DNA of 32,000 nucleotides from an archaeon (GTDB taxonomy: Archaea; Asgardarchaeota; Thorarchaeia; Thorarchaeales; Thorarchaeaceae). How positions within the stretch are numbered: position 1 is the stretch's first letter; every line of letters begins with the position of its first letter. The notes under the pieces were generated by a model that did not search any database, had not been told where the DNA came from, and worked only from the letters and a program-made list of their open reading frames with translations. The stretch is taken from contig JAJRZD010000017.1 in assembly GCA_024275415.1 (NCBI GenBank), positions 30,001 through 62,000 on the forward strand, read 5' to 3'. Positions 4,437 to 19,463 of this stretch are shown in pieces. Position numbers and translations under genes: made by a program.

Positions 4437-4921
4437 GTGATGATGAATATCTTCGAGAGCATGTCCCACAATCAGTCCTTTCAGAACAATATTACCGAGA
4501 CAAGGGTCTCCGTGCTGCTGGTATAACAGTCGAAGCAATCGTTAATGACGCATTGGAACGCGAACCCGGCATCCACGGAATATGGGTTCATCCTAATATG
4601 CAAAGACCAGCAAAGAAATTCGTGAAACATGAGCGAATGCTGAAGCTGAAACACAGATCTGCAAAAACGAATAGGCTGTCAAGAACCGCAAATGCACTGC
4701 GAGATTTGCATGTCACACTTCATGAACTCTATGACGGTTACCATCCACCCGTCAGGACGATGGTAATGGGTGCCGCACCTGGAGAGCCCGCAACGGAGGT
4801 CGTTCCAATTCGATCGGGCTCGGATGAATTCAATCTCCTGACGAGTGCTCGGGAGCGTGTTGCTCGATCAGCCGATGCCGAGTCGGTCGTGAGGGATGAT
4901 AGTGAAGACCGAGGAACTTGA
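4433..4921 (+). CDS. Hypothetical protein (162 aa)
   Basis: ATGA overlap with the previous gene fixes the start at 4433 rather than 4352. Confidence 0.65.
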   Translation: MSDDEYLREHVPQSVLSEQYYRDKGLRAAGITVEAIVNDALEREPGIHGIWVHPNMQRPAKKFVKHERMLKLKHRSAKTNRLSRTANALRDLHVTLHELYDGYHPPVRTMVMGAAPGEPATEVVPIRSGSDEFNLLTSARERVARSADAESVVRDDSEDRGT

Positions 4922-6773
4922 GCGTGCGCGATATGATGTTTTGCCAACCCCCTATCCAGTTGGTAGAGGTGCAGATGGGTATCCATGCTACATTCAACAA
5001 GTCAGGACACAGAAAGGCGTCGAAATATGGCCGGTAGTGCCATTTCATGTGCGGCGATTCCCCCCTAGACGTGGATGGTGGAAACGAACAAAGGATCCAT
5101 GGATTGACAGATTCGACCAAGCATGGGAGTTCGATCAGAAATTCTGGAAGATTGTCGATGTCTACAGGGATTCCTGGAAACGTAGAATCATCAAGAACAA
5201 GTCGCTTAGGCGAGCAATACAGATTGACGGCACATGGAGGGTCTTGCGTTCGTTCAAGCAACTCGCTACCGGCATGAGCAAGAAGCATGAGGGCGGAAAT
5301 GTAGTATTCGCAATACGCGGATGGAAACGAACCGGAAAGACATACTTGGGCAAAATCCTTGGGAAGGTCTGGACCAATGTGATGCGTGATGAATACGGGA
5401 TTGAGAGCGATATCAAGACAGTTTTCGGCGTCAATCAAGTCCGCAAGATCCACAAGAAATGCAATAGAGGTGATTTCATTCTATGCGACGAAAGCGCAAA
5501 GCTAACCTCGAGCGGTGCGATCACAGCCATCATCAATCTCGTAAACATATTGGAGATATCCGGGCTGGATCAGATAGCGGTCGGATTCATTGGCCCGAAT
5601 TTCGACTTCAAAAGCGTGGGCGGAGCGCTTGACATGGGCTTCGATGTCCTTGGAGCCAACTTTGAACATGAGATGATACGGGCCCTAGTTTATGACAAGG
5701 AGGCTGAACCTCTCTATTGTGCCGGATTTCAACGTAATTTTCTTGCATCTGAATTCCCGACTTATCATGAAGCAAAAGCTAAGAAGAGCAAGGCGATTCG
5801 CGAAGATGACGGCGCAGAAGAAATCTGGGACGAGGAGGAATTCCAACAGGATGTTGCAAGACTAGTCGAGTACGCAAAAGAGGAATATGCCCATCAGCTT
5901 CGAGCGAAGCGATTTCCGCGGATCACGAGCCTAGAAGGTGATGCAAAGGATCTTCGAATCATCGGACACAGCGATTATATGAAGCGGGTTGCCTCGAAAG
6001 CACGTGACAAGCTTGAAAATTATGTGTATTCCCTCCCGGACACAAAAGAAACACCCCCTGACATACGTGTAGAGCACATTCCTGACGGGGAGGAGGAAAG
6101 AACACACATCTTTGTCCCATACCTCATCGCTGCGACGAACGCATATGTTTCCCAACCCCGATTCCGAGCTAACAAAAGGGCTATCCGACGATTCACACGA
6201 TTCTACTTCGAGAATCTCACCTATCAAGACATCGCCGAATTAGAATCAGATGAGAATAATGATGACCCTGATTACCACCGTGTGACCGCTAACAACATCG
6301 GAAAGGCTGTCAGAGGGTTGAGAAAAAAACTCAATAACAATGATGTCGGCGCCATAGGCGAGCTTGCAGTCATGAAATTCTTGGAATCTCGCCTCCCGCA
6401 GACACTCTCTCTGGTGCGTGGGCGGCGGTGCGGGTGCCTGGAGTCGGCTGACAACGACATCGACCTTGGGGTCGGGGACGAGGAGGGGGAACGGTTCGTG
6501 GCGGTGAACGTGAAGTTGTTCTTGAGCGAGAGGGACGGGTCGGTGATCCACTGCAGCCCGGAGTTCAGGCACAGCCCACACATGTGCGTGGTGGTCGAGG
6601 TGCGGCGGAAGGAGGGGTTGCGAGTGGAGGTGCTGCTGAACGGTCCCGAGGTGGAGACCCAGGCGCAGGCCAGGGAGGAGGGCAGGGTCGTCGACCTGGA
6701 ACGGATGGTGGGACTCCTGACCTTCGGCATTGGTTCTCCGGCGGTGGGTGCGGGGGAGGAGGCTTTCACGTGA
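4896..6773 (+). CDS. P-loop ATPase fused to an HTH and a C-terminal PD-(D/E)XK nuclease-like domain (625 aa)
   Basis: Walker A GWKRTGKT (about 5319), Walker B FILCDE (about 5475), HTH-like LTYQDIAE...ANNIGKAVRGL, and nuclease-like GAIGELAVMKFL...DIDL...VAVNVK from about 6348. Confidence 0.8.
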   Translation: MIVKTEELERARYDVLPTPYPVGRGADGYPCYIQQVRTQKGVEIWPVVPFHVRRFPPRRGWWKRTKDPWIDRFDQAWEFDQKFWKIVDVYRDSWKRRIIKNKSLRRAIQIDGTWRVLRSFKQLATGMSKKHEGGNVVFAIRGWKRTGKTYLGKILGKVWTNVMRDEYGIESDIKTVFGVNQVRKIHKKCNRGDFILCDESAKLTSSGAITAIINLVNILEISGLDQIAVGFIGPNFDFKSVGGALDMGFDVLGANFEHEMIRALVYDKEAEPLYCAGFQRNFLASEFPTYHEAKAKKSKAIREDDGAEEIWDEEEFQQDVARLVEYAKEEYAHQLRAKRFPRITSLEGDAKDLRIIGHSDYMKRVASKARDKLENYVYSLPDTKETPPDIRVEHIPDGEEERTHIFVPYLIAATNAYVSQPRFRANKRAIRRFTRFYFENLTYQDIAELESDENNDDPDYHRVTANNIGKAVRGLRKKLNNNDVGAIGELAVMKFLESRLPQTLSLVRGRRCGCLESADNDIDLGVGDEEGERFVAVNVKLFLSERDGSVIHCSPEFRHSPHMCVVVEVRRKEGLRVEVLLNGPEVETQAQAREEGRVVDLERMVGLLTFGIGSPAVGAGEEAFT

Positions 6774-6808: not shown

Positions 6809-6905
6809 AGATGAGCCATGCGGTATGAGAGCAGGAGCCTATTGAGCATTATTCACAGTTACACTTCCTGTGTATGTATCTCTCATGAGTAAACTTATGA
6901 ACAAG

Positions 6906-6929
6906 TTATTATCTAATAGCATGCTACTA
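6906..6929 (+). promoter_or_regulatory. TATA-like box plus 16-bp palindrome (putative operator) before the cargo operon
   Basis: TTATTAT at 6906-6912, about 30 nt before ATG 6940. TAATAGCATGCTACTA at 6914-6929 is a palindrome with one mismatch and a perfect TAGCATGCTA core. Confidence 0.5.
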
Positions 6930-6939
6930 AATAGACGAG

Positions 6940-7443
6940 ATGAGCACATTGCCGGATGATAGTGGGGCCGATTGGGATAGGACTGGGGATAAAGATGTCA
7001 AAAAACAAATTCATGATTATCTATTGGCGCTCTTCGTTGCCAATAACGCAGAACCTATCAGAGGCCGGATAATGCTGATTAAGCAGGCTTTCATTCTTTT
7101 CAAAGAGATTGTTCCCGAGCTGAAATCAAAAGTCAAATTCTTCCCCTATGAATGGGGTCCTTATAGTAATGACATAGCAGCAGGCATCAATGAGATGATC
7201 ACAAAAGGGTACATAGGTGTCCGGACTGAGGGGCGGGATAAGATCTATTATCTGACTCCGCTTGGACTGAAACAGGCCAAGTCCGCCATACAATCGATTC
7301 CAAAGGACTACTTAGAGGATATTGAACGGATGAAAATGACCACTCAAGAGATGGGGTTGAGTAGGCTTCTCCGGTTCATCTATTCTAATTATCCTCAATA
7401 TGCAAAATACTCTCGGGGGCGCGAAACATATGTCACTACCTGA
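6940..7443 (+). CDS. Panacea/SocA (DUF4065)-like antitoxin-domain protein (167 aa)
   Basis: PIRGRIMLIKQAFIL...FFPYEWGPYSNDI...LLRFIYSNYP resembles the SocA/DUF4065 pattern (P-x-x-G-R-x-x-L-x-K, GP[YV]S). Confidence 0.7.
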   Translation: MSTLPDDSGADWDRTGDKDVKKQIHDYLLALFVANNAEPIRGRIMLIKQAFILFKEIVPELKSKVKFFPYEWGPYSNDIAAGINEMITKGYIGVRTEGRDKIYYLTPLGLKQAKSAIQSIPKDYLEDIERMKMTTQEMGLSRLLRFIYSNYPQYAKYSRGRETYVTT

Positions 7444-8023
7444 CCTATTATCATTTGTTTTTTTCATATTAGGGGGCGGAGGTGCTGCAATTGGCATTCA
7501 TCTCAAGCTCGCCGAGCAATGGCTGAAGGACAAGAATGACCAAGTGGACAATCTTGTTGATGCCAAGCGATTCGCATTCATGGAATCATTGAATGAATCC
7601 TGCAAGAAAAGATCCGAAATGGAAGAGGAGAACGAAGAGGAATTCCCTCTTATTGGATTTGGCAGTCTTTATGAGTCTGTGGGTGAATTGACACGACTGG
7701 CTGAAGAATTCGATGCTGTAAATGGGTGCCTTTTTCAGTTGTCTCGGATTGTGCGGGATGGGGCCAAATACTGGCTCTTCGCTGCAATTACTCTCTGCAT
7801 TGGTTCGTTTTTGGTTTATATTGATGAATTCCTGCGAACTATCTGGTCTTTTGAAATTCTGAGTATTGCATTGATTATTGCATACCCCCTCTTTGTAATC
7901 ACCTTCTTGTTCGCGATGTTTGCGGTCAGAACCCTAATTATCACGTTGAATAAACTGAATAGATTAGATGAACAAAGCGAGGAACTTCAAAGATATGAGC
8001 GACAATGGAGGAAAAGAACATGA
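7430..8023 (+). CDS. Hypothetical 3-TM membrane protein (197 aa)
   Basis: ATG 7430 overlaps the upstream gene. One N-terminal and two C-terminal hydrophobic helices flank an acidic helical loop. Confidence 0.75.
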   Translation: MSLPDLLSFVFFILGGGGAAIGIHLKLAEQWLKDKNDQVDNLVDAKRFAFMESLNESCKKRSEMEEENEEEFPLIGFGSLYESVGELTRLAEEFDAVNGCLFQLSRIVRDGAKYWLFAAITLCIGSFLVYIDEFLRTIWSFEILSIALIIAYPLFVITFLFAMFAVRTLIITLNKLNRLDEQSEELQRYERQWRKRT

Positions 8024-9285
8024 ATCGGCCAGTGAGAATCATCAATATGACCGATAGCGGGCGTACCCTATCAGTGTCTATTAATAGTAAGAAGTTCACA
8101 ACACCCACGCGTGCTGTCATTCATACGGAGCTTGACAAGTTCGCACAACTCGTAACAAGGTACCAGAAACAGATTTCTTCTGTCGAACCGCCACCAAGCG
8201 AAATCCAAGAAACTGTGTTGGACTTTACTAAGGGTTCGCTACAGGCGCTAGTGTCTCGAAATGAAGAGGTACCAAGACGAATAGCTTCGCTGAAGAAACG
8301 GAATAAGAATGGATCTAACCGACTTAAGATCTGCAATCCGCGATTGACTACGCAAACTGAAACCGTCAATATTAATGAAATCAGGATGTTAGCACTACTG
8401 CAAATCGAGGCTCATTGCTTGGATATGATTACAATTCCAGACCCGAGTTTCACTAATCCTTCAGCGGATTTGCTTGATGCTGCTCTCGCTCAGGCCAGAA
8501 AACTGGCTGATGACCACGGAATGGATCGGATTCCTATCATGCCTTTATTCGACCTGAAAACCGAGCCTGATGATCTTGAATTACGTCTAAAAAGAGTATT
8601 GGATGAAGGACACACATTCATCGGGTTTCGATATCGCATGAAAAAGTTTGCCAGTATGGAACGCGTCAGACAAATTCTGGCTGACAAAGAGGTCTGGGTA
8701 CATCTAACGGGAGTATTCAAGAATCACTCCTCAAGGCCTATCAAACCACAGATCCACATAATGCCATTATATTCTTTTGATAGTGTTTCGAGTTACAAAT
8801 ACTTCGGCGGCCCCCGGAAATCAAGTTCTGAGGCCTTGGAGTTTCCCATAGTTCCGGAAAGAAGGGATCCAGGTGTCCGTGTGTACTTGGAACATATGAC
8901 TGCACACATTCCAATTGGAATCATCGATCCACTCGCCAATGAGAGAAGATTTGATTCTAATGCATTGGGTTTTCTCACCAAGGACATTCATCATGACTTA
9001 TGCGGAGATGCATTGAACTGTGATTGTTTCATATGTGCGGGGCGAACAATTGACCAGTTCTACGAAACCTATGGTATTGAGAATGGCAGTCCATCCCTAC
9101 CACGATTGAGATTGCATCAGAACATTCACGAGCTATATGCAAGTCATTCTGAATTCCAAGCTGCGCAGAAAAGGCTGACTAATGAAAGTTATCTCGAATA
9201 TCTCCGAGAAAAACCAGTTGTTCAACAGTATTTGAAAAACGAACGCGAATTCATTATCAGCTCAAGGCTTGATTCATTCACGTGA
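8020..9285 (+). CDS. Divergent tRNA-guanine transglycosylase (TGT)-fold protein with Zn site (421 aa)
   Basis: ATGA overlap and GGAGG SD at 8007. TGT-like landmarks appear in order: RT...FTTP, DMITIPD, FIGF, WVHLTGV, SFDSV, CDCFIC (9019-9036) and a later His-bearing helix (LHQNIHELY). Confidence 0.65.
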   Translation: MNRPVRIINMTDSGRTLSVSINSKKFTTPTRAVIHTELDKFAQLVTRYQKQISSVEPPPSEIQETVLDFTKGSLQALVSRNEEVPRRIASLKKRNKNGSNRLKICNPRLTTQTETVNINEIRMLALLQIEAHCLDMITIPDPSFTNPSADLLDAALAQARKLADDHGMDRIPIMPLFDLKTEPDDLELRLKRVLDEGHTFIGFRYRMKKFASMERVRQILADKEVWVHLTGVFKNHSSRPIKPQIHIMPLYSFDSVSSYKYFGGPRKSSSEALEFPIVPERRDPGVRVYLEHMTAHIPIGIIDPLANERRFDSNALGFLTKDIHHDLCGDALNCDCFICAGRTIDQFYETYGIENGSPSLPRLRLHQNIHELYASHSEFQAAQKRLTNESYLEYLREKPVVQQYLKNEREFIISSRLDSFT

Positions 9286-9330: not shown

Positions 9331-9543
9331 CTATTTACCTTTCAGCAGTTTATTCATCTCTTTCTGGTAATTACACTTTCGACAATCAACATGAAACCAG
9401 TAGTCGGTAAGTTCGTCTTTTCCCTTTGGTCGTCTTGTACAAAAGCGATGAGTTCCGTTTTCAGTATAATGTGTTTTTCGAGTGGGGGGACTCCACGTTC
9501 TTCGCCTATTTTTTGATGAACTACGTTTCTCATCTTGGGTCAA
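9331..9543 (-). CDS. Small basic protein with putative Zn-binding H/C...CxxC motif (70 aa)
   Basis: TTG start preceded by an AGGTGA SD. Sequence THY...RFC...WFHVDCRKC. Confidence 0.55.
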   Translation of the reverse strand: MTQDEKRSSSKNRRRTWSPPTRKTHYTENGTHRFCTRRPKGKDELTDYWFHVDCRKCNYQKEMNKLLKGK

Positions 9544-9575: not shown

Positions 9576-10175
9576 TTACGAGGGATTTGACGGATGGACA
9601 GAAACATCGAATTCTGCTGTCACTTTAAAAACATGCCTTTTGTTCCACACCATTTCATTCTCATTATCCGAGATCAACACTGTGAGTTTTCTATAACCGT
9701 CAGGAATAGGTGAATCTAATTCAGTCAATAGCGTGATGGTTTCTCCAGGTGCAATCGCATCCTCATCAGGGTCAACCTCTTTTTCTCCTTTGAACCAATC
9801 CCCCGTTATCTTAATGGATGATAGAAACAGATTTCTCTTTCCTACATTCGCAACAATGATTGCTGTTTCTGGGTACCCCTGTGGGGGTAGATTCTCAAAG
9901 GTGATACTAGGAACTGGTTGATACTCATCTCGAATCAGGCTTAGAGATTTATAGTTGAATATTGCAGTTACTGCTAGGGCACTCAATGAAATCAGTACAG
10001 ATGTGGCTATAAGGAAATCCGAATATCCTTCAACAGGTGCATAGAACTCGATGAGTACTGTTGTTACCACGGAAAAGATAAGGACTAATAAAAATCCCAG
10101 TAATAAGAATTCCCCTAGCATTTTTGCAAAAGAAACAAGTTTCGCGACATAAGGTTTCATTCGCTCCGGAATCAT
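9576..10175 (-). CDS. Membrane protein with two TM helices and a C-terminal Ig/CARDB-like beta domain (199 aa)
   Basis: GGAG SD, two hydrophobic helices, and the pattern IIVANVGKR...IAPGETITL. Confidence 0.7.
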   Translation of the reverse strand: MIPERMKPYVAKLVSFAKMLGEFLLLGFLLVLIFSVVTTVLIEFYAPVEGYSDFLIATSVLISLSALAVTAIFNYKSLSLIRDEYQPVPSITFENLPPQGYPETAIIVANVGKRNLFLSSIKITGDWFKGEKEVDPDEDAIAPGETITLLTELDSPIPDGYRKLTVLISDNENEMVWNKRHVFKVTAEFDVSVHPSNPS

Positions 10176-10267
10176 ACTTCAATCTCCTACGCAGGACTCC
10201 TTTCACTCCATCCCACGCAACTACCAACTAACCAAAACACCCTATAAAGTCTCTTCCTATGCCCCGA

Positions 10268-10726
10268 TCATCGCAACTCCGGTTTGATGTATTCGAACAT
10301 CCGGTCTAGCAATCCGGACGGTGCTTCGAACCTGAACTGTCCAGAGGGGGTGTAGAGTACCATTGACTCGTTCTTGAGAATGAACCATAGGACCGAGATG
10401 ATACTACCAATCATCAATGGGAACATCCCATAGAACAAGACGTAGAACAGCAACACTGTGGAGGGAATCCAGTCTAATGTAAGAATCGATAACAACATCA
10501 TCATCCCGACGTATGCCAGTACCAACCCGAAGATGAACACCATTCCGCCGTATTTCCTTCTCTTCTCGATCCAGACGGCATCGATTGCCGAGAGCATCAA
10601 GACAAAGGTCTTCCATGATGAGCCCTTGGCGATAATCTTGTCTTCGTCGATGACTATGTTGTAGTAACGGGAATCATTGATATCTACTTGTTCTGTCATA
10701 ACTAATGGCTCTTTTCTGTTCGACAT
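10268..10726 (-). CDS. Hypothetical 2-TM membrane protein (152 aa)
   Basis: GAGGTG SD, TATA-like TTTAAGTA at 10760-10767 on the minus strand, and a central hydrophobic hairpin. Confidence 0.7.
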   Translation of the reverse strand: MSNRKEPLVMTEQVDINDSRYYNIVIDEDKIIAKGSSWKTFVLMLSAIDAVWIEKRRKYGGMVFIFGLVLAYVGMMMLLSILTLDWIPSTVLLFYVLFYGMFPLMIGSIISVLWFILKNESMVLYTPSGQFRFEAPSGLLDRMFEYIKPELR

Positions 10727-10875
10727 CTCCAGCCACCTCTGCCATAATATGCATCCCGATACTTAAATGAAGCTCCCGCGGATGATTGATAATTGCTCAC
10801 TTTATAAGGCTCGTGGACAACATGAGCTTATGAGTAACTATGAATTTGAGTGGATTCCAGGCTCATAAAAATAGT

Positions 10876-11160
10876 TCATTCTTCAAGGATGTCTTGGATC
10901 TCACAGACCTTCTCTGCTACCTTACGTCCCTTGTCAGTGATGACGAGGAACTTCTTCGGTCGCGGCCCCTCCTCCATGACCTCTTTCACCAACCCTAACT
11001 TGGAGAGGTTGTTTCGGCATTTTCGTAGTGCATCTTGGCTCATGATTCCTTCCGGATTCCAAGCTCGCTTGATTAGTTCTGTCACGTATCTCTGTCTTAC
11101 TTGAAGAAGCAATAGAAGTCTCAGAGATCCCACCGATTCTAGTTTTTCAAGGAGCTCCAT
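10876..11160 (-). CDS. Winged-helix transcriptional regulator (MarR/HxlR-like), candidate repressor (94 aa)
   Basis: LRLLLLL...YVTEL...SQDALRKCRNNLSKLGLV...KKFLVITDKGRKVAE fits the wHTH pattern. Confidence 0.85.
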   Translation of the reverse strand: MELLEKLESVGSLRLLLLLQVRQRYVTELIKRAWNPEGIMSQDALRKCRNNLSKLGLVKEVMEEGPRPKKFLVITDKGRKVAEKVCEIQDILEE

Positions 11161-11488: not shown

Positions 11489-12090
11489 TGGAGTCCCAAG
11501 AAACGCACCCGGGCGCCACCACGCCAGCATCACTCCCCGAGTTGCGTGAGCACTTAGTTTTTTCCCAACCCTCCCAGATACTGTGGGTGGAGAGGAAAAG
11601 GCTCCTGAATATGCGAGAGTACGGTCTTGCGGACTACGAGAACTCGGAGATCAAGATGAAGATTCCCTTCGAAACCACTCTTCCGGTTTCAAACGAATTC
11701 ATTCGCAAAGCCATATCGTCAGTGGATGCGGTGATTTCAGAGTGGGAAAGTTCCGAGCTCAAACGCATCCAGGAGTCCAATGATGCATTCCACGAACAAA
11801 GCAAGAAGGCTCGCAGGGAGGAATCTGTCAAATACAAGTGGAAACAGATCATGGAAGGTCTGAAACCCCGTGAGGATCCCCTACCCGACAGGGTCGTGGA
11901 CTATGTGAAACGGGGTGTCGAAGCTGATGCCCAAGAGATTTGTGAAGAGTTCTCAGAAGAGTTCGGTGAAGAAGCCGTCCTGGGCGCAATAATTGGGCTC
12001 GTCACTGGTTGGAAACCACGACTCGAGGAGATTCACCCAGGACTGTTCCGACTCGTCGCGGACGACAATCTGGAGGACGAAGGCGAATGA
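11488..12090 (+). CDS. Hypothetical protein (200 aa), possible C-terminal winged helix
   Basis: TAATG coupling to the upstream gene. C-terminal RVVDYVKRG...AQEICEEF...LFRLV resembles a wHTH. Confidence 0.7.
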   Translation: MESQETHPGATTPASLPELREHLVFSQPSQILWVERKRLLNMREYGLADYENSEIKMKIPFETTLPVSNEFIRKAISSVDAVISEWESSELKRIQESNDAFHEQSKKARREESVKYKWKQIMEGLKPREDPLPDRVVDYVKRGVEADAQEICEEFSEEFGEEAVLGAIIGLVTGWKPRLEEIHPGLFRLVADDNLEDEGE

Positions 12091-13892
12091 CCGCGACAGA
12101 ACAAAGACAAGTGTCCCATGATGCCGTGAAGAACCTCTTCGAGGAGAAGCCGGATATTATCCCAGTACAATATCAAGAGTCGATCATCAAGCACCTGGTG
12201 GATGGTGTTTCAAAGACGAAGGCTGCTGAATCAGTGGGGATATCAAGGCCGAGCTGGCAACGGCATCTCGAGAAAGTCCAGAGAGCGCTTGAAACCTTTC
12301 ACGTGGAAGGCGAAAGATTGGATCCCAGACGCCAGCGCATCGAGTATATCCACCCAACTCGCATTGATGTGACCACATTCCAGCCAAGGAACATTGACGA
12401 TCCAAGCGAGGCATTCATCGAGGATATCCGTCGTCATGGTGGGAATCACCAGGCGATTACTGTGAGAGAGAAGCCCCGTCGCTATGGGTCTAAAGACTAT
12501 GACTGCATTAAGGGACACCGCCGGCTGAAAGCATTGCTTGCGATCAATGCAGGACTCTCCCCAGCCGAGCATTTGCTTGCGAAATGTATTGTCGAGCCAT
12601 TGGATGACAAACAGGCCGCCCTGGAATCGCTTACAGACAATATGTTCCACAAGGACTTGGAAACAACAGACAGAGATCTATGGATTGCGAAGCTTGTTTT
12701 AGACTATGGATGGACACCATCTCAACTAGATGAGAGATTCGAGGACCTGAGCGCTGACGCGATATCGAACATCGTACGTTCATACCGTGACGCGACAGCC
12801 ACAGTAAGGGCACTGCTAGATTCAAGAGATATCGCGGTCGGACACGTCAAGGCCATCGTATCACTGCCTCCAGAGGATCAGGATCGGATAGCAGATCGTA
12901 TCTTGAAGCGGATCAAGGACTCCGTGACCGATGGGACTTTTCCTTTCGGGGGTCCAAGCGTCAGAGAAGTTGAGTCTTGGGCACGGATGGCTCGGAACCG
13001 GAACGAGGCTGTAAAGCGTCTCGAGTCGTATTTCACCGAACTGGTCAACAAAGGTGAAACGATACTGCATGTACGAAACTCTGATGAAATAGTCCAACAG
13101 GTCTTTGGCGGTTTCAGATACAACGATTACCGAGTGCGTGACTACGATGTAGCGAATGCCGCCAAGGCCGCAGGCATCACACTCGAATATCCGCCCCTCG
13201 AAGATTCACTTAACGAACTTAGAGACAAGTACTCTCTTCAAGAGGAGGAAGGTGGAAAGAGTGGTTCTGATGGCAAGCGATTGATAGATAATGAGAGCTG
13301 GATGGAGAAAAAGGATGAGGCAGTGATTGAAGAATCACCACCTAAAGACCTATGCAATAATTGCGCGGCGTTCAGCCATGCAGAACAGATATGTGCACTG
13401 GGGCTACTAGAAGTAGGGTTGAAACCCGAAGAAGTATTTGAATGTCCTGGGTTCTTGCATTCTGATGATAGGCGACCTTTCGTTTCGCAATGCCCTATCT
13501 GCAAGCATCAAACAATGGTCATCCACGGTGAAACTCCCTATCTTAATGAAACCCCGAGTGCAATCTCTCTTACACACGATTCCCCTCATGCGGAATTCAG
13601 AATGCACACGCAATGTGTTGCACAGCATCTGATCCGAAAGAAACTCCTCAGTGGGATGTGTGAGTCGTGCAGCGGTGCATTCTGTCCATTCATCCATTCC
13701 GACAACATGGTTTCGATTGTCGGACAGATCCGGATGGACATCAAGGAATGCGGCTATCTTTCCAAGAAACAAAAGTTGTCCGAGATCAACAAGTGGGCGG
13801 ACGGTGAGTACCGTGCTGCTCAGGTCAGGAAAAGGCGAAGTCGGCCGGGAGGACGAACCCCTGAGAAACGAGGGTGGGCGGCAAAGCAATGA
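12087..13892 (+). CDS. ParB/Srx-domain protein with N-terminal HTH and C-terminal Cys/His-rich domains (601 aa)
   Basis: ATGA overlap. HTH GVSKTKAAESVGIS; ParB-N motifs FQPR, AITVR, GHRRLKAL, LTDNMFHKDL; ParB-type HTH; then CNNC, CPIC and CESCSGAFC clusters. Confidence 0.8.
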   Translation: MTATEQRQVSHDAVKNLFEEKPDIIPVQYQESIIKHLVDGVSKTKAAESVGISRPSWQRHLEKVQRALETFHVEGERLDPRRQRIEYIHPTRIDVTTFQPRNIDDPSEAFIEDIRRHGGNHQAITVREKPRRYGSKDYDCIKGHRRLKALLAINAGLSPAEHLLAKCIVEPLDDKQAALESLTDNMFHKDLETTDRDLWIAKLVLDYGWTPSQLDERFEDLSADAISNIVRSYRDATATVRALLDSRDIAVGHVKAIVSLPPEDQDRIADRILKRIKDSVTDGTFPFGGPSVREVESWARMARNRNEAVKRLESYFTELVNKGETILHVRNSDEIVQQVFGGFRYNDYRVRDYDVANAAKAAGITLEYPPLEDSLNELRDKYSLQEEEGGKSGSDGKRLIDNESWMEKKDEAVIEESPPKDLCNNCAAFSHAEQICALGLLEVGLKPEEVFECPGFLHSDDRRPFVSQCPICKHQTMVIHGETPYLNETPSAISLTHDSPHAEFRMHTQCVAQHLIRKKLLSGMCESCSGAFCPFIHSDNMVSIVGQIRMDIKECGYLSKKQKLSEINKWADGEYRAAQVRKRRSRPGGRTPEKRGWAAKQ

Positions 13893-17913: not shown

Positions 17914-18125
17914 GCGAGATAGAAGAACCACCTATGACCCGTGAGTTGTTTCGTTTGCTTTCTGCTGGAGTTTCTTTAGTATTTCAGCGTATAATTGATC
18001 AACTAAGCCCTGAAACAATTCAGATGATGCTGAAAGACCTTCAAGAGCTTGAGTCGCTGTCGCCTGCGTCTGTTCCTGAAGTGCCTCTTCAGAGAGAGGT
18101 AGGCGACACCGCGAGCATAAACTAG
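17910..18125 (+). CDS. Hypothetical protein (71 aa) overlapping the integrase 3' end in antisense
   Basis: GGAGGT SD and an ATGA overlap like the preceding eight genes. Confidence 0.45.
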   Translation: MSEIEEPPMTRELFRLLSAGVSLVFQRIIDQLSPETIQMMLKDLQELESLSPASVPEVPLQREVGDTASIN

Positions 18126-19083
18126 CGTCTGCTTCATTGATTGCGCCACAATTTGGACATTGAATCGGTTGTGGTATATTGTTATCTTTTGGCAGAATCC
18201 CTAGATATTTCAGCTCCGCTTTATGTAGGTCTTCCTGATCTAATATCGCATAGTATTGTTCAAGCACTTGGCTATCTTTCTTGTGCCCCATCCTAAGCTT
18301 GACTTCTAATGGCGAAAGCCGTCCTTCTCTTAGAAGTTGTGTTGCTCTGGAATGTCGAAAAAGATATGGAAAGAGAGAGCATTTAGGGCCATGACTCCCA
18401 CGCCCAAGTCTAACATCATGTTGAATTTGCAGTGTGTTTCGAATAGTTTTGACCGTCGGACGGCGCCCAAAGCGATTGATGAAGAGCGGAGCCTCATTGT
18501 CATCCCTCTTTGGATGCACCGCAAACCAATTCTCAAAGGTTTTGATAGCAGCCGGAATCAATAGAGTGACATTGCGCCGACCCTGTTCATTTTTCACTTT
18601 ATCAAATTTGAACTGGTAACCATAACGGGTCTGAATCACATCTCCGACGTCCAACTTCAGAACAGCGCCAGGTCTTCGTCCAGTGTCAAAGACAACCATA
18701 TAGAATGCCTTCAACCAAAGAAGCTCTGTATTTTCACAAATGTCTACGAGTTCCTCCCAGGTAATCAAGTCACTTGAGCGTATCTTTCGTTTTGGCTTAT
18801 GTCGCTTCCGACCCAAAGCTCGTTTCAGGTCCTTATCGATATCGAGCTTGTTGAACTCCATTAGTCGCGTCAGAATATACTTTCGTGCATTCAATGTTTG
18901 GACAGAAAGATGTGTCATCTTCGACAGGATATCTAGTGGCTGCGGGTTTTCAGGATCCAGAGAATATGTATTGATCATCGCATCGAGATTCTGCTCATAG
19001 TTCTGTAATGTTGAATCGGCCATCGCGACGTCGGAAACATCACGAAGATAATTTAGAAACCGCTTGCGGTCGAAAGAGGCCAT
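17932..19083 (-). CDS. int: Tyrosine recombinase/integrase with C-terminal Zn ribbon (about 383 aa)
   Basis: DTGRRPGAV (catalytic R), YLFRHSRAT (HxxR), MGH, EQYY (catalytic Tyr region) and CPNCG...CSRC. Start 19083 is preferred because a TATA box lies 26 nt upstream. Confidence 0.95.
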   Translation of the reverse strand: MASFDRKRFLNYLRDVSDVAMADSTLQNYEQNLDAMINTYSLDPENPQPLDILSKMTHLSVQTLNARKYILTRLMEFNKLDIDKDLKRALGRKRHKPKRKIRSSDLITWEELVDICENTELLWLKAFYMVVFDTGRRPGAVLKLDVGDVIQTRYGYQFKFDKVKNEQGRRNVTLLIPAAIKTFENWFAVHPKRDDNEAPLFINRFGRRPTVKTIRNTLQIQHDVRLGRGSHGPKCSLFPYLFRHSRATQLLREGRLSPLEVKLRMGHKKDSQVLEQYYAILDQEDLHKAELKYLGILPKDNNIPQPIQCPNCGAINEADASLCSRCRLPLSEEALQEQTQATATQALEGLSASSELFQGLVDQLYAEILKKLQQKANETTHGS

Positions 19084-19108
19084 GTTTGGGACATTCGAGT
19101 TGCCCTCA

Positions 19109-19115
19109 TATATAA
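19109..19115 (-). promoter_or_regulatory. Archaeal TATA box for a leaderless integrase transcript
   Basis: TTATATA on the minus strand, 26 nt before ATG 19083. Confidence 0.55.
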
Positions 19116-19463
19116 TTATGGAGTTATTTGCCCTCATGAAGAGCCCTTCTTTTCGTAACATGCCCTCATTACACAAACTCCCCCCCTCCTACCACGATAG
19201 CCTTGTTATCTCCGACCACACCTTTTCTATGTCCGCATTTTGAGGATTAGAAACAGTCGACGCTAATGTATCTCGACTCCATCAATAGCAATTACTTTGC
19301 ATTACAGAGGCCTAGCGAAAAAACAAATACGAATTCGTAAATCTTATTTTTCAATTTTCCAATATTAGTGCGGTCTGAAGAAGAGAAAAACCCGATACCA
19401 GCGTTGTGCTTCTTGAAGCTGGTGTCTTCTCATTTAGGAATCATCTACGCTTGAGGTGATTAC

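Follow-up and report, generated by a model that had tools for sequence, protein, structure and literature searches.

The window analysed here is a 32,000-nucleotide stretch from a member of the Thorarchaeaceae (assembly GCA_024275415.1, contig JAJRZD010000017.1, positions 30,001 to 62,000 of the forward strand), and its subject is a cassette of three overlapping genes, g1, g2 and g3, that may be one copy of a mobile archaeal conflict module. All three lie on the forward strand. The first, g1 (6940-7443), encodes a winged-helix protein of 167 aa with a predicted fold like that of Panacea proteins and of the C-terminal domain of DarG; g2 (7430-8023; alternative upstream ATG at 7400) encodes a membrane protein of 197 aa, a candidate effector or toxin; and g3 (8020-9285; alternative upstream ATG at 8005) encodes a divergent zinc protein of 421 aa with the fold of tRNA-guanine transglycosylase (TGT). 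An earlier interpretation made from the nucleotide letters (the sequence-only reading) had described three overlapping genes in an AT-rich cargo slot of a provirus. This layout was confirmed, as the open reading frames (ORFs) of g1 and g2 overlap by 14 nt and those of g2 and g3 by ATGA, and the latter junction recurs in the homologous operons L002 and L003/L004. The AT-richness of the slot is likewise real: GC content is 0.42-0.45 across approximately 7-11 kb of an integrase-bearing element, compared with 0.49-0.54 on either side.

TGT-fold proteins were long known as tRNA modifiers only, DNA modification (by DpdA) being found later. Taken alone, g3 had no family match in Pfam, NCBIfam, PADLOC or PHROG (for the TGT family PF01702, none at E ≤ 1), and a phmmer search against the PDB returned nothing. 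Word-index searching for homologues retrieved g3 itself only, and a g3-based search for related loci found nothing in viral contigs and, with the single protein as query, nothing in genome contigs. However, an exhaustive HMMER search recovered 94 relatives. PF01702 was matched by 23 of 66 full-length relatives (best E 4.3e-6), and the family profile matched the archaeal TGT (ArcTGT) 1iq8 with an E of 4.6e-6. The AlphaFold2 (AF2) model of g3 has a predicted local distance difference test score (pLDDT) of 90.8 and a predicted template modelling score of 0.89. Its best matches in a VIA structural search were ArcTGT (1iq8, Z 23.4), bacterial TGT (3unt, Z 23.2) and QTRT2 (Z 22.4), with weaker matches to DpdA (Z 16.1), Cap10 (Z 14.6) and generic TIM barrels (Z approximately 13). 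Foldseek agreed with the TGT assignment (E 2e-9), as did hhalign of the g3 family against 30 ArcTGTs (probability 98.8%, E 3.8e-16). From the model and these comparisons g3 is placed with confidence in the TGT superfamily by fold, and the TGT barrel landmarks noted from the letters are borne out.

Active-site residues were mapped by profile-profile alignment to the 30 ArcTGTs combined with column counts over the 66 relatives, not by residue-level superposition; hhalign against one ArcTGT sequence covered the zinc region only, and the alignment of 30 was used instead. The CxCxxC...H zinc site, already recognized in the sequence-only reading, is conserved across the family, its ligands C334 (65/66), C336 (65/66), C339 (61/66) and H370 (66/66) aligning with the ArcTGT zinc motif. 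D254, aligned with the ArcTGT GCD motif and Asp in 59 of 66 relatives, is equivalent to the nucleophile Asp (Zm D280, Ph D249, DpdA D256). D141, in an IPD motif aligned with the ArcTGT ILD motif, is equivalent to the base-recognition Asp (Zm D156, Ph/DpdA D130); this position is D in 47 and E in nine of the 66. For the general acid/base Asp of the DSGG motif (Zm D102, Ph/DpdA D95) the profile-based alignment showed no conserved acidic residue at g3 98-112 (maximum 25/66), and the ArcTGT DSG motif falls on non-conserved columns of the g3 family, where the strand consensus is FxP. The equivalent of the GxDxFD motif is SFDSVS in g3 and GIDTxS in the family, so that of its two Asp residues the first is retained and the second is replaced by Ser. 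Both the absence of DSGG and a possible Ser at this second position had been noted earlier, and both hold for the family as a whole. TGT and DpdA have all three active-site Asp residues without exception, and exchange is lost in the D95A mutant (PMC10164549). Thus, g3 has the fold of TGT, yet without the invariant DSGG Asp it fails a defining feature of active base-exchange enzymes.

Comparison with characterized members of the superfamily shows how far g3 has diverged. With ArcTGT, TGT, QTRT1 and QTRT2 (PF01702) it shares a (beta/alpha)8 barrel, an N-terminal beta lid, the zinc subdomain and the nucleophile and base-pocket Asp residues (Z 22-23). It differs from them in lacking the DSGG Asp, in having Ser for the second GxDxFD Asp, in lacking PUA and C-terminal tRNA-binding domains and in not being a housekeeping protein, the host having its own ArcTGT. 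The g3 model also contains an insertion of about 50 residues predicted with low confidence (about 260-308). DpdA (7ui4), the DNA preQ0 insertase of the Dpd restriction-modification system, is like g3 a TGT-superfamily protein in genetic conflict and on mobile DNA. Unlike g3, DpdA keeps all three Asp residues and has no N-terminal beta lid (PMC10164549), and it is the weaker structural match. Cap10 of the type IV cyclic-oligonucleotide-based antiphage signalling system (CBASS; 9ntn) handles a protein-linked deazaguanine and has an Asp/His catalytic pair, D248/H226 (bioRxiv 10.1101/2025.04.06.647259). It provides an example of a TGT fold remodelled for an immune role, although the cassette has neither a CD-NTase nor a Cap9/QueC-like partner. 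Two further histidines are conserved in the g3 family (H228 in 59/66 and H246 in 62/66) and, by analogy, these together with D254 may recall the Cap10 pair.

The protein encoded by g1 had been described as Panacea/SocA-like, which proved correct for the fold and not for the sequence. There was no match of g1 to Pfam SocA_Panacea (PF13274) at E ≤ 1 and none in the whole genome at E ≤ 10; one of 12 g1 relatives reached PF13274, with an E of 0.034, and none of 61 genomes of the phylum had a Panacea match at E ≤ 1e-8. PADLOC matches of g1 were to PDC-M19A (3.6e-11), to the C-terminal part or extension of a type I specificity subunit (3.6e-8) and to DarG (0.0017). The first covers only N-terminal positions 20-129 of the 294 in the PDC-M19A profile, and no paper mentioning PDC-M19 was found in the literature searched. 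The alignment to DarG is confined to positions 178-272 of 329 (PADLOC) or 189-281 of 338 (NCBIfam), and neither a macrodomain nor a DarT family match was found for g1-g3 or their neighbours in Pfam, PADLOC or NCBIfam.

The best solved match of the AF2 model of g1 (pLDDT 86) was the DarG chain in the Mycobacterium tuberculosis DarTG complex (7yk3_D; VIA Z 11.0 over 141 of 167 residues), while ordinary winged helix-turn-helix (wHTH) proteins matched with Z 7-9 over only about 85 residues. In the ESM Atlas, where both sides of the comparison are predicted models, g1 had a template modelling (TM) score of 0.70 over 144-149 residues to clusters annotated 97-100% SocA_Panacea and of 0.77 to a cluster named DUF4065. 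In some of the matched clusters the domain is joined to a UPF0175, CopG or HTH_3 antitoxin domain. The JGI label on a g1 homologue is 'YwgA'. The Panacea likeness of g1, as modelled, therefore holds at fold level only. The resemblance to DarTG extends to the kind of partner, as the partner neutralized by DarG is an enzyme acting on nucleic-acid bases; the cassette differs in having no macrodomain and no DarT-like ADP-ribosyltransferase, and its partner enzyme has a TGT fold. Prediction of a g1+g3 complex scored 0.06 against a mark of 0.32; it gave no answer and was not used as evidence.

The membrane protein g2 has hydropathy segments at residues 3-21, 113-131, 134-152 and 153-171, giving a predicted topology of one N-terminal transmembrane helix, an acidic central region and two to three C-terminal transmembrane helices. 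It had no match in Pfam, PADLOC or PHROGs. Homologues are found at the same position in L002 and L003/L004, and hhalign related g2 to proteins with three transmembrane helices (3-TM proteins) in distant operons with a probability of 93.9% (E 1.5e-7).

Co-occurrence of the three genes in other genomes had been proposed as a check, and it was found. Metagenomes and species genomes supplied 15 independent contexts for the comparison, and these span both major clades of the g3 tree at approximately 20-48% g3 identity. A g1-like gene adjoins the g3-like gene in 13 of them (hidden Markov model E 1e-18 to 1e-92), in one of two gene orders, either g1-x-g3 (here g1-g2-g3) or g3-g1-x. In eight contexts (the window, L002, L003/L004, L078, L079, L081, L084/L085 and L087) the third gene encodes a 3-TM protein of matching size and topology, and in four contexts belonging to a sister clade (L072, L074, L075/L076 and L082/L083) it encodes a GNAT acetyltransferase. 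Two loci depart further from these arrangements: L088 has a zinc-ribbon-g1 fusion and a 102-aa protein, and L086 has two small putative DNA-binding proteins instead. Variation of the third gene (3-TM or GNAT) around a constant g1 and g3 fits the idea of a sensor or enzyme coupled to an effector.

The cassette is sporadic. A survey of 400 genomes of the phylum, which counted only full-length matches with E < 1e-30, found full-length relatives of g3 in approximately seven, including one in which the gene is split. Most of the 179 matches in the survey were to the zinc region of the housekeeping ArcTGT and were discarded, as they are not members of the g3 family. The split relative (G360:C30:16969-18020; L077:7955-9006) consists of two overlapping ORFs of 176 and 180 aa and has no adjoining g1-like gene; it looks like a decaying copy of the cassette. 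Genes of mobile or defence type are frequent neighbours in homologous loci. Among them are an OLD-type AAA_15/TOPRIM ATPase-nuclease, serine recombinases and a DDE transposase, as well as a PIN protein, a DEAD/ResIII helicase and a UvrD-PD-(D/E)xK helicase accompanied by a methyltransferase. This agrees with the expectation that the cassette would recur on mobile or defence-type DNA.

The arrangement of g1 and g2 invites comparison with PanA-PanT systems, in which Panacea antitoxins neutralize membrane-disrupting toxins through complex formation (Kurata et al. 2022, PMC8832971). In both cases a small antitoxin-type gene of Panacea-like fold lies directly upstream of, and overlaps, a gene for a small membrane protein, and in both the distribution is mobile and patchy with a hyper-variable partner gene; the overlap of g1 with the membrane-protein gene is compatible with a putative neutralization of a toxin. 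The cassette differs in being tripartite, in that g1 falls below PF13274 and in that its constant partner has a TGT fold, TGT being unmentioned in the main text of PMC8832971. Because pairs of PanA with a membrane PanT are experimentally established (PMC8832971), g1-g2 could be an ordinary pair of this type, with g3 a non-catalytic regulator or a passenger. The TGT paralogue QTRT2 would be a model for such a protein, and it is among the three best structural matches of g3. This is very unlikely, however, as g3 and g1 are the most constantly retained genes and g3 is present without the 3-TM protein in the GNAT and other variants. Moreover, both the pocket Asp and the nucleophile Asp of g3 are conserved, and searches for stand-alone relatives of g2 found none, the word-index search with g2 retrieving g2 only.

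A modifying role for g3 would draw on 7-deazaguanine made by the host. Beside its own ArcTGT, the host genome encodes a DpdA-type protein of 393 aa (G000:C123:77935-79116; L008:1339-2520; L094:9936-11117) that matches the NCBIfam DpdA equivalog NF041059 with 410 bits (E 8e-123). The Pfam DpdA model PF23859 matched nothing in the genome at E ≤ 1, not even this gene. The gene sits among core genes (for a Hef-like helicase-ERCC4, A-type ATPase subunits, SRP54 and UDG) and is adjoined by one for a DUF6884 protein. The presence of a chromosomal DpdA in a Thorarchaeote suggests that its DNA contains 7-deazaguanine and, together with the ArcTGT, means that 7-deazaguanine chemistry is possible in this cell. 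The sequence-only reading had seen no deazaguanine genes. That remains true of the surroundings of the cassette, which is not accompanied by DpdB/C or preQ0 synthesis genes, and is not true of the host, which carries the ArcTGT and the strong DpdA equivalog elsewhere.

Given this background, g3 might be an active modifier like DpdA or ArcTGT, putting host-made 7-deazaguanine into the DNA of the element or into tRNA, for protection against restriction or for tuning of translation, with g1 as a DNA-binding regulator or specificity factor. Its TGT fold with zinc site, nucleophile Asp and pocket Asp would suit such a role, and pairs of GNAT and TGT proteins have been proposed as DNA-modification modules in systems related to BREX (bacteriophage exclusion; PMC12839542). 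A gene for a ParB-like protein 2.7 kb away (12009-13892, forward strand; 627 aa, with ParB N-terminal and HTH domains and a long uncharacterized C-terminal part) was considered as an analogue of DpdB. This was rejected because the protein matches only partition-type Noc, ParB and RepB and because homologous operons have no ParB-like neighbour. Against a modifying role more generally, the whole family lacks the general acid/base Asp, which TGT and DpdA always have and cannot do without, and g3 has no match to a DpdA model and a Z of only 16.1 to DpdA compared with 23 to the tRNA enzymes. No convincing QueC was found in the 92.9%-complete genome, the best PF06508 match (31 bits) covering the first 64 profile positions only. 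In addition, the constant partner of g3 has an antitoxin fold, the third gene encodes a membrane protein, and a housekeeping modifier would not be expected to be so sporadically distributed. A modifying role for g3 is therefore improbable.

It is clear from the conservation of the cassette that g1 and g3 are the constant part of the module, and this raises the possibility that the toxin is g3 itself and g1 its cognate antitoxin, following the logic of DarT and DarG. In such a case g3 would be a glycosylase derived from TGT: it would excise guanine, or a modified guanine, from tRNA or DNA and put no base back, so that abasic sites or covalent adducts remain. The nucleic-acid groove of g3 would be blocked by g1, and g2 or the GNAT protein would be an accessory or second toxin. 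The nearest solved structure of g1 is indeed the DarT-binding domain of DarG, and g3 has kept the nucleophile and base-pocket Asp residues while losing the Asp that activates the incoming base (PMC10164549). In addition, g3 has its N-terminal beta lid and lies nearer to the tRNA enzymes than to DpdA. However, the lost Asp is also the general acid for the departing guanine, so that its absence should cripple excision too if no other residue takes over. There would also be no need for a separate, conserved gene of effector type (3-TM or GNAT). On balance a g3 toxin is possible but unlikely.

The combination of a constant pair, a swappable toxin-like third gene, patchy spread and location on mobile DNA is the signature of a conflict module. 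On the favoured interpretation, which has a probability of roughly one half, the cassette is one example of a mobile conflict module of archaea that would act in toxin-antitoxin fashion, by abortive infection or by superinfection exclusion; g1 and g3 would form its constant core, around which the effector is exchanged. For its operation we infer toxicity and its neutralization, a trigger, a role for each of the three proteins and a defence phenotype, as follows. Using the pocket Asp D141 and the nucleophile D254, the latter probably paired with H228 or H246, g3 would bind or covalently attack a guanine-type base in RNA, in DNA or in free form. The normal base-exchange cycle is probably beyond it because of the missing general acid/base Asp. 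By direct binding, as with Panacea antitoxins and the DarG C-terminal domain, g1 would restrain g3, the effector or both. A trigger, perhaps a competing virus or the disappearance of the element, would free the membrane protein to depolarize or permeabilize the membrane, and the resulting growth arrest would benefit the resident element.

Several observations weigh against this interpretation. Direct sequence search does not connect g2 with the distant 3-TM proteins, g1 lacks a Pfam Panacea match, and one cassette (L081) lies beside ribosomal-protein genes and not in a defence or mobile region. A check against PADLOC, proposed with the sequence-only reading, yielded the g1 matches to PDC-M19A and DarG, but PADLOC has no model for g2 or g3. 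Furthermore, conservation of D254 (59/66) and of D or E at position 141 (56/66) speaks for g3 as an enzyme and against a passive sensor, in which case the toxin could be g3 and not g2. The initial proposal thus survives in its main lines (a conserved cassette, a divergent TGT fold, an antitoxin-type fold for g1 and mobile or defence-type DNA), whereas Panacea membership by sequence and autoregulation through a palindrome do not.

Within the conflict-module interpretation g3 may have a more specific function, which is put forward tentatively and is rather unlikely. It would be a new archaeal immune sensor-enzyme whose target, a base of guanine or 7-deazaguanine type, occurs in the nucleic acid of an invader, in tRNA or as a free metabolite, and it would release interchangeable effectors (a membrane pore or a GNAT protein) via a Panacea-fold adaptor. 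If so, the cassettes would form a modular defence family built on the fold of queuosine and archaeosine enzymes. The components resemble known kinds, namely neutralizers of Panacea/DarG type, membrane toxins and TGT folds in immunity. In the literature searched, no paper described the cassette or linked Panacea/DUF4065 with TGT. A conflict module of this composition would extend the use of the TGT fold in genetic conflict by a third, widespread archaeal branch, with one catalytic Asp lost, an antitoxin-fold partner and swappable effectors. It would also add a candidate defence or addiction system, undetected by PADLOC and Pfam, for Asgard and other archaea. Retention of the nucleophile with loss of the general acid/base makes a clear biochemical prediction, and the pairing of g1 with g3 would be a tractable model for neutralization of nucleic-acid enzymes by proteins of Panacea/DarG type.

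The region immediately upstream of g1 (6896-6939, forward strand) is AT-rich, contains an imperfect palindrome and is a possible promoter or operator. The sequence-only reading had placed a palindrome between a TATA-like box and the start of g1 and pointed out that toxin-antitoxin operons commonly autoregulate through palindromes. The palindrome is present (arms 6910-6922 and 6921-6933, 85% complementary, core TAGCATGCTA) but it is not above chance: when the 130 nt upstream were shuffled, about 60% of the shuffled sequences contained one that was equal or better (p approximately 0.6), and nothing comparable lies upstream of the homologous operons. It was therefore discarded as evidence for an operator. 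The claimed TATA-like box is an AT-rich stretch only, and a scan for sigma-70 promoters gave nothing above shuffles, the sigma-70 consensus being irrelevant for an archaeon. Among the homologous loci only L073 has a statistically unusual upstream repeat: the region L073:5709-5838, upstream of the g3-like gene, has a near-perfect palindrome of 28 nt (shuffle p 0.015) and several tandem copies of a CTTTCCA-type motif. Downstream, approximately 200 nt past g3, a stem-loop followed by a T run (9482-9514, forward strand) may mark the end of the transcription unit; it comes from a consensus scan in which the number of such sites was not above shuffled expectation.

The remaining features belong to the element around the cassette. 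Its tyrosine integrase has a zinc-ribbon tail and is encoded at 17932-19176 on the reverse strand, and host-type genes (an EamA transporter, PAS histidine kinases and DUF362) begin near 20.6 kb. One host gene in the window shares 77-78% identity with genes of Candidatus Thorarchaeota MAGs, which marks the host as an Asgard archaeon. The ParB-like protein suggests that the element perhaps also replicates or partitions as an episome. Two large proteins of the element, encoded on the forward strand at 215-2782 (855 aa) and 4896-6773 (625 aa), had no match in Pfam, NCBIfam or PHROG. The lower-GC slot that holds the cassette also contains, at 9576-11160 on the reverse strand, genes for two more membrane proteins (199 aa, with a weak match to an Ig-like domain, and 152 aa) and a 94-aa PadR/wHTH-like gene; these are convergent with the cassette and may be additional cargo.

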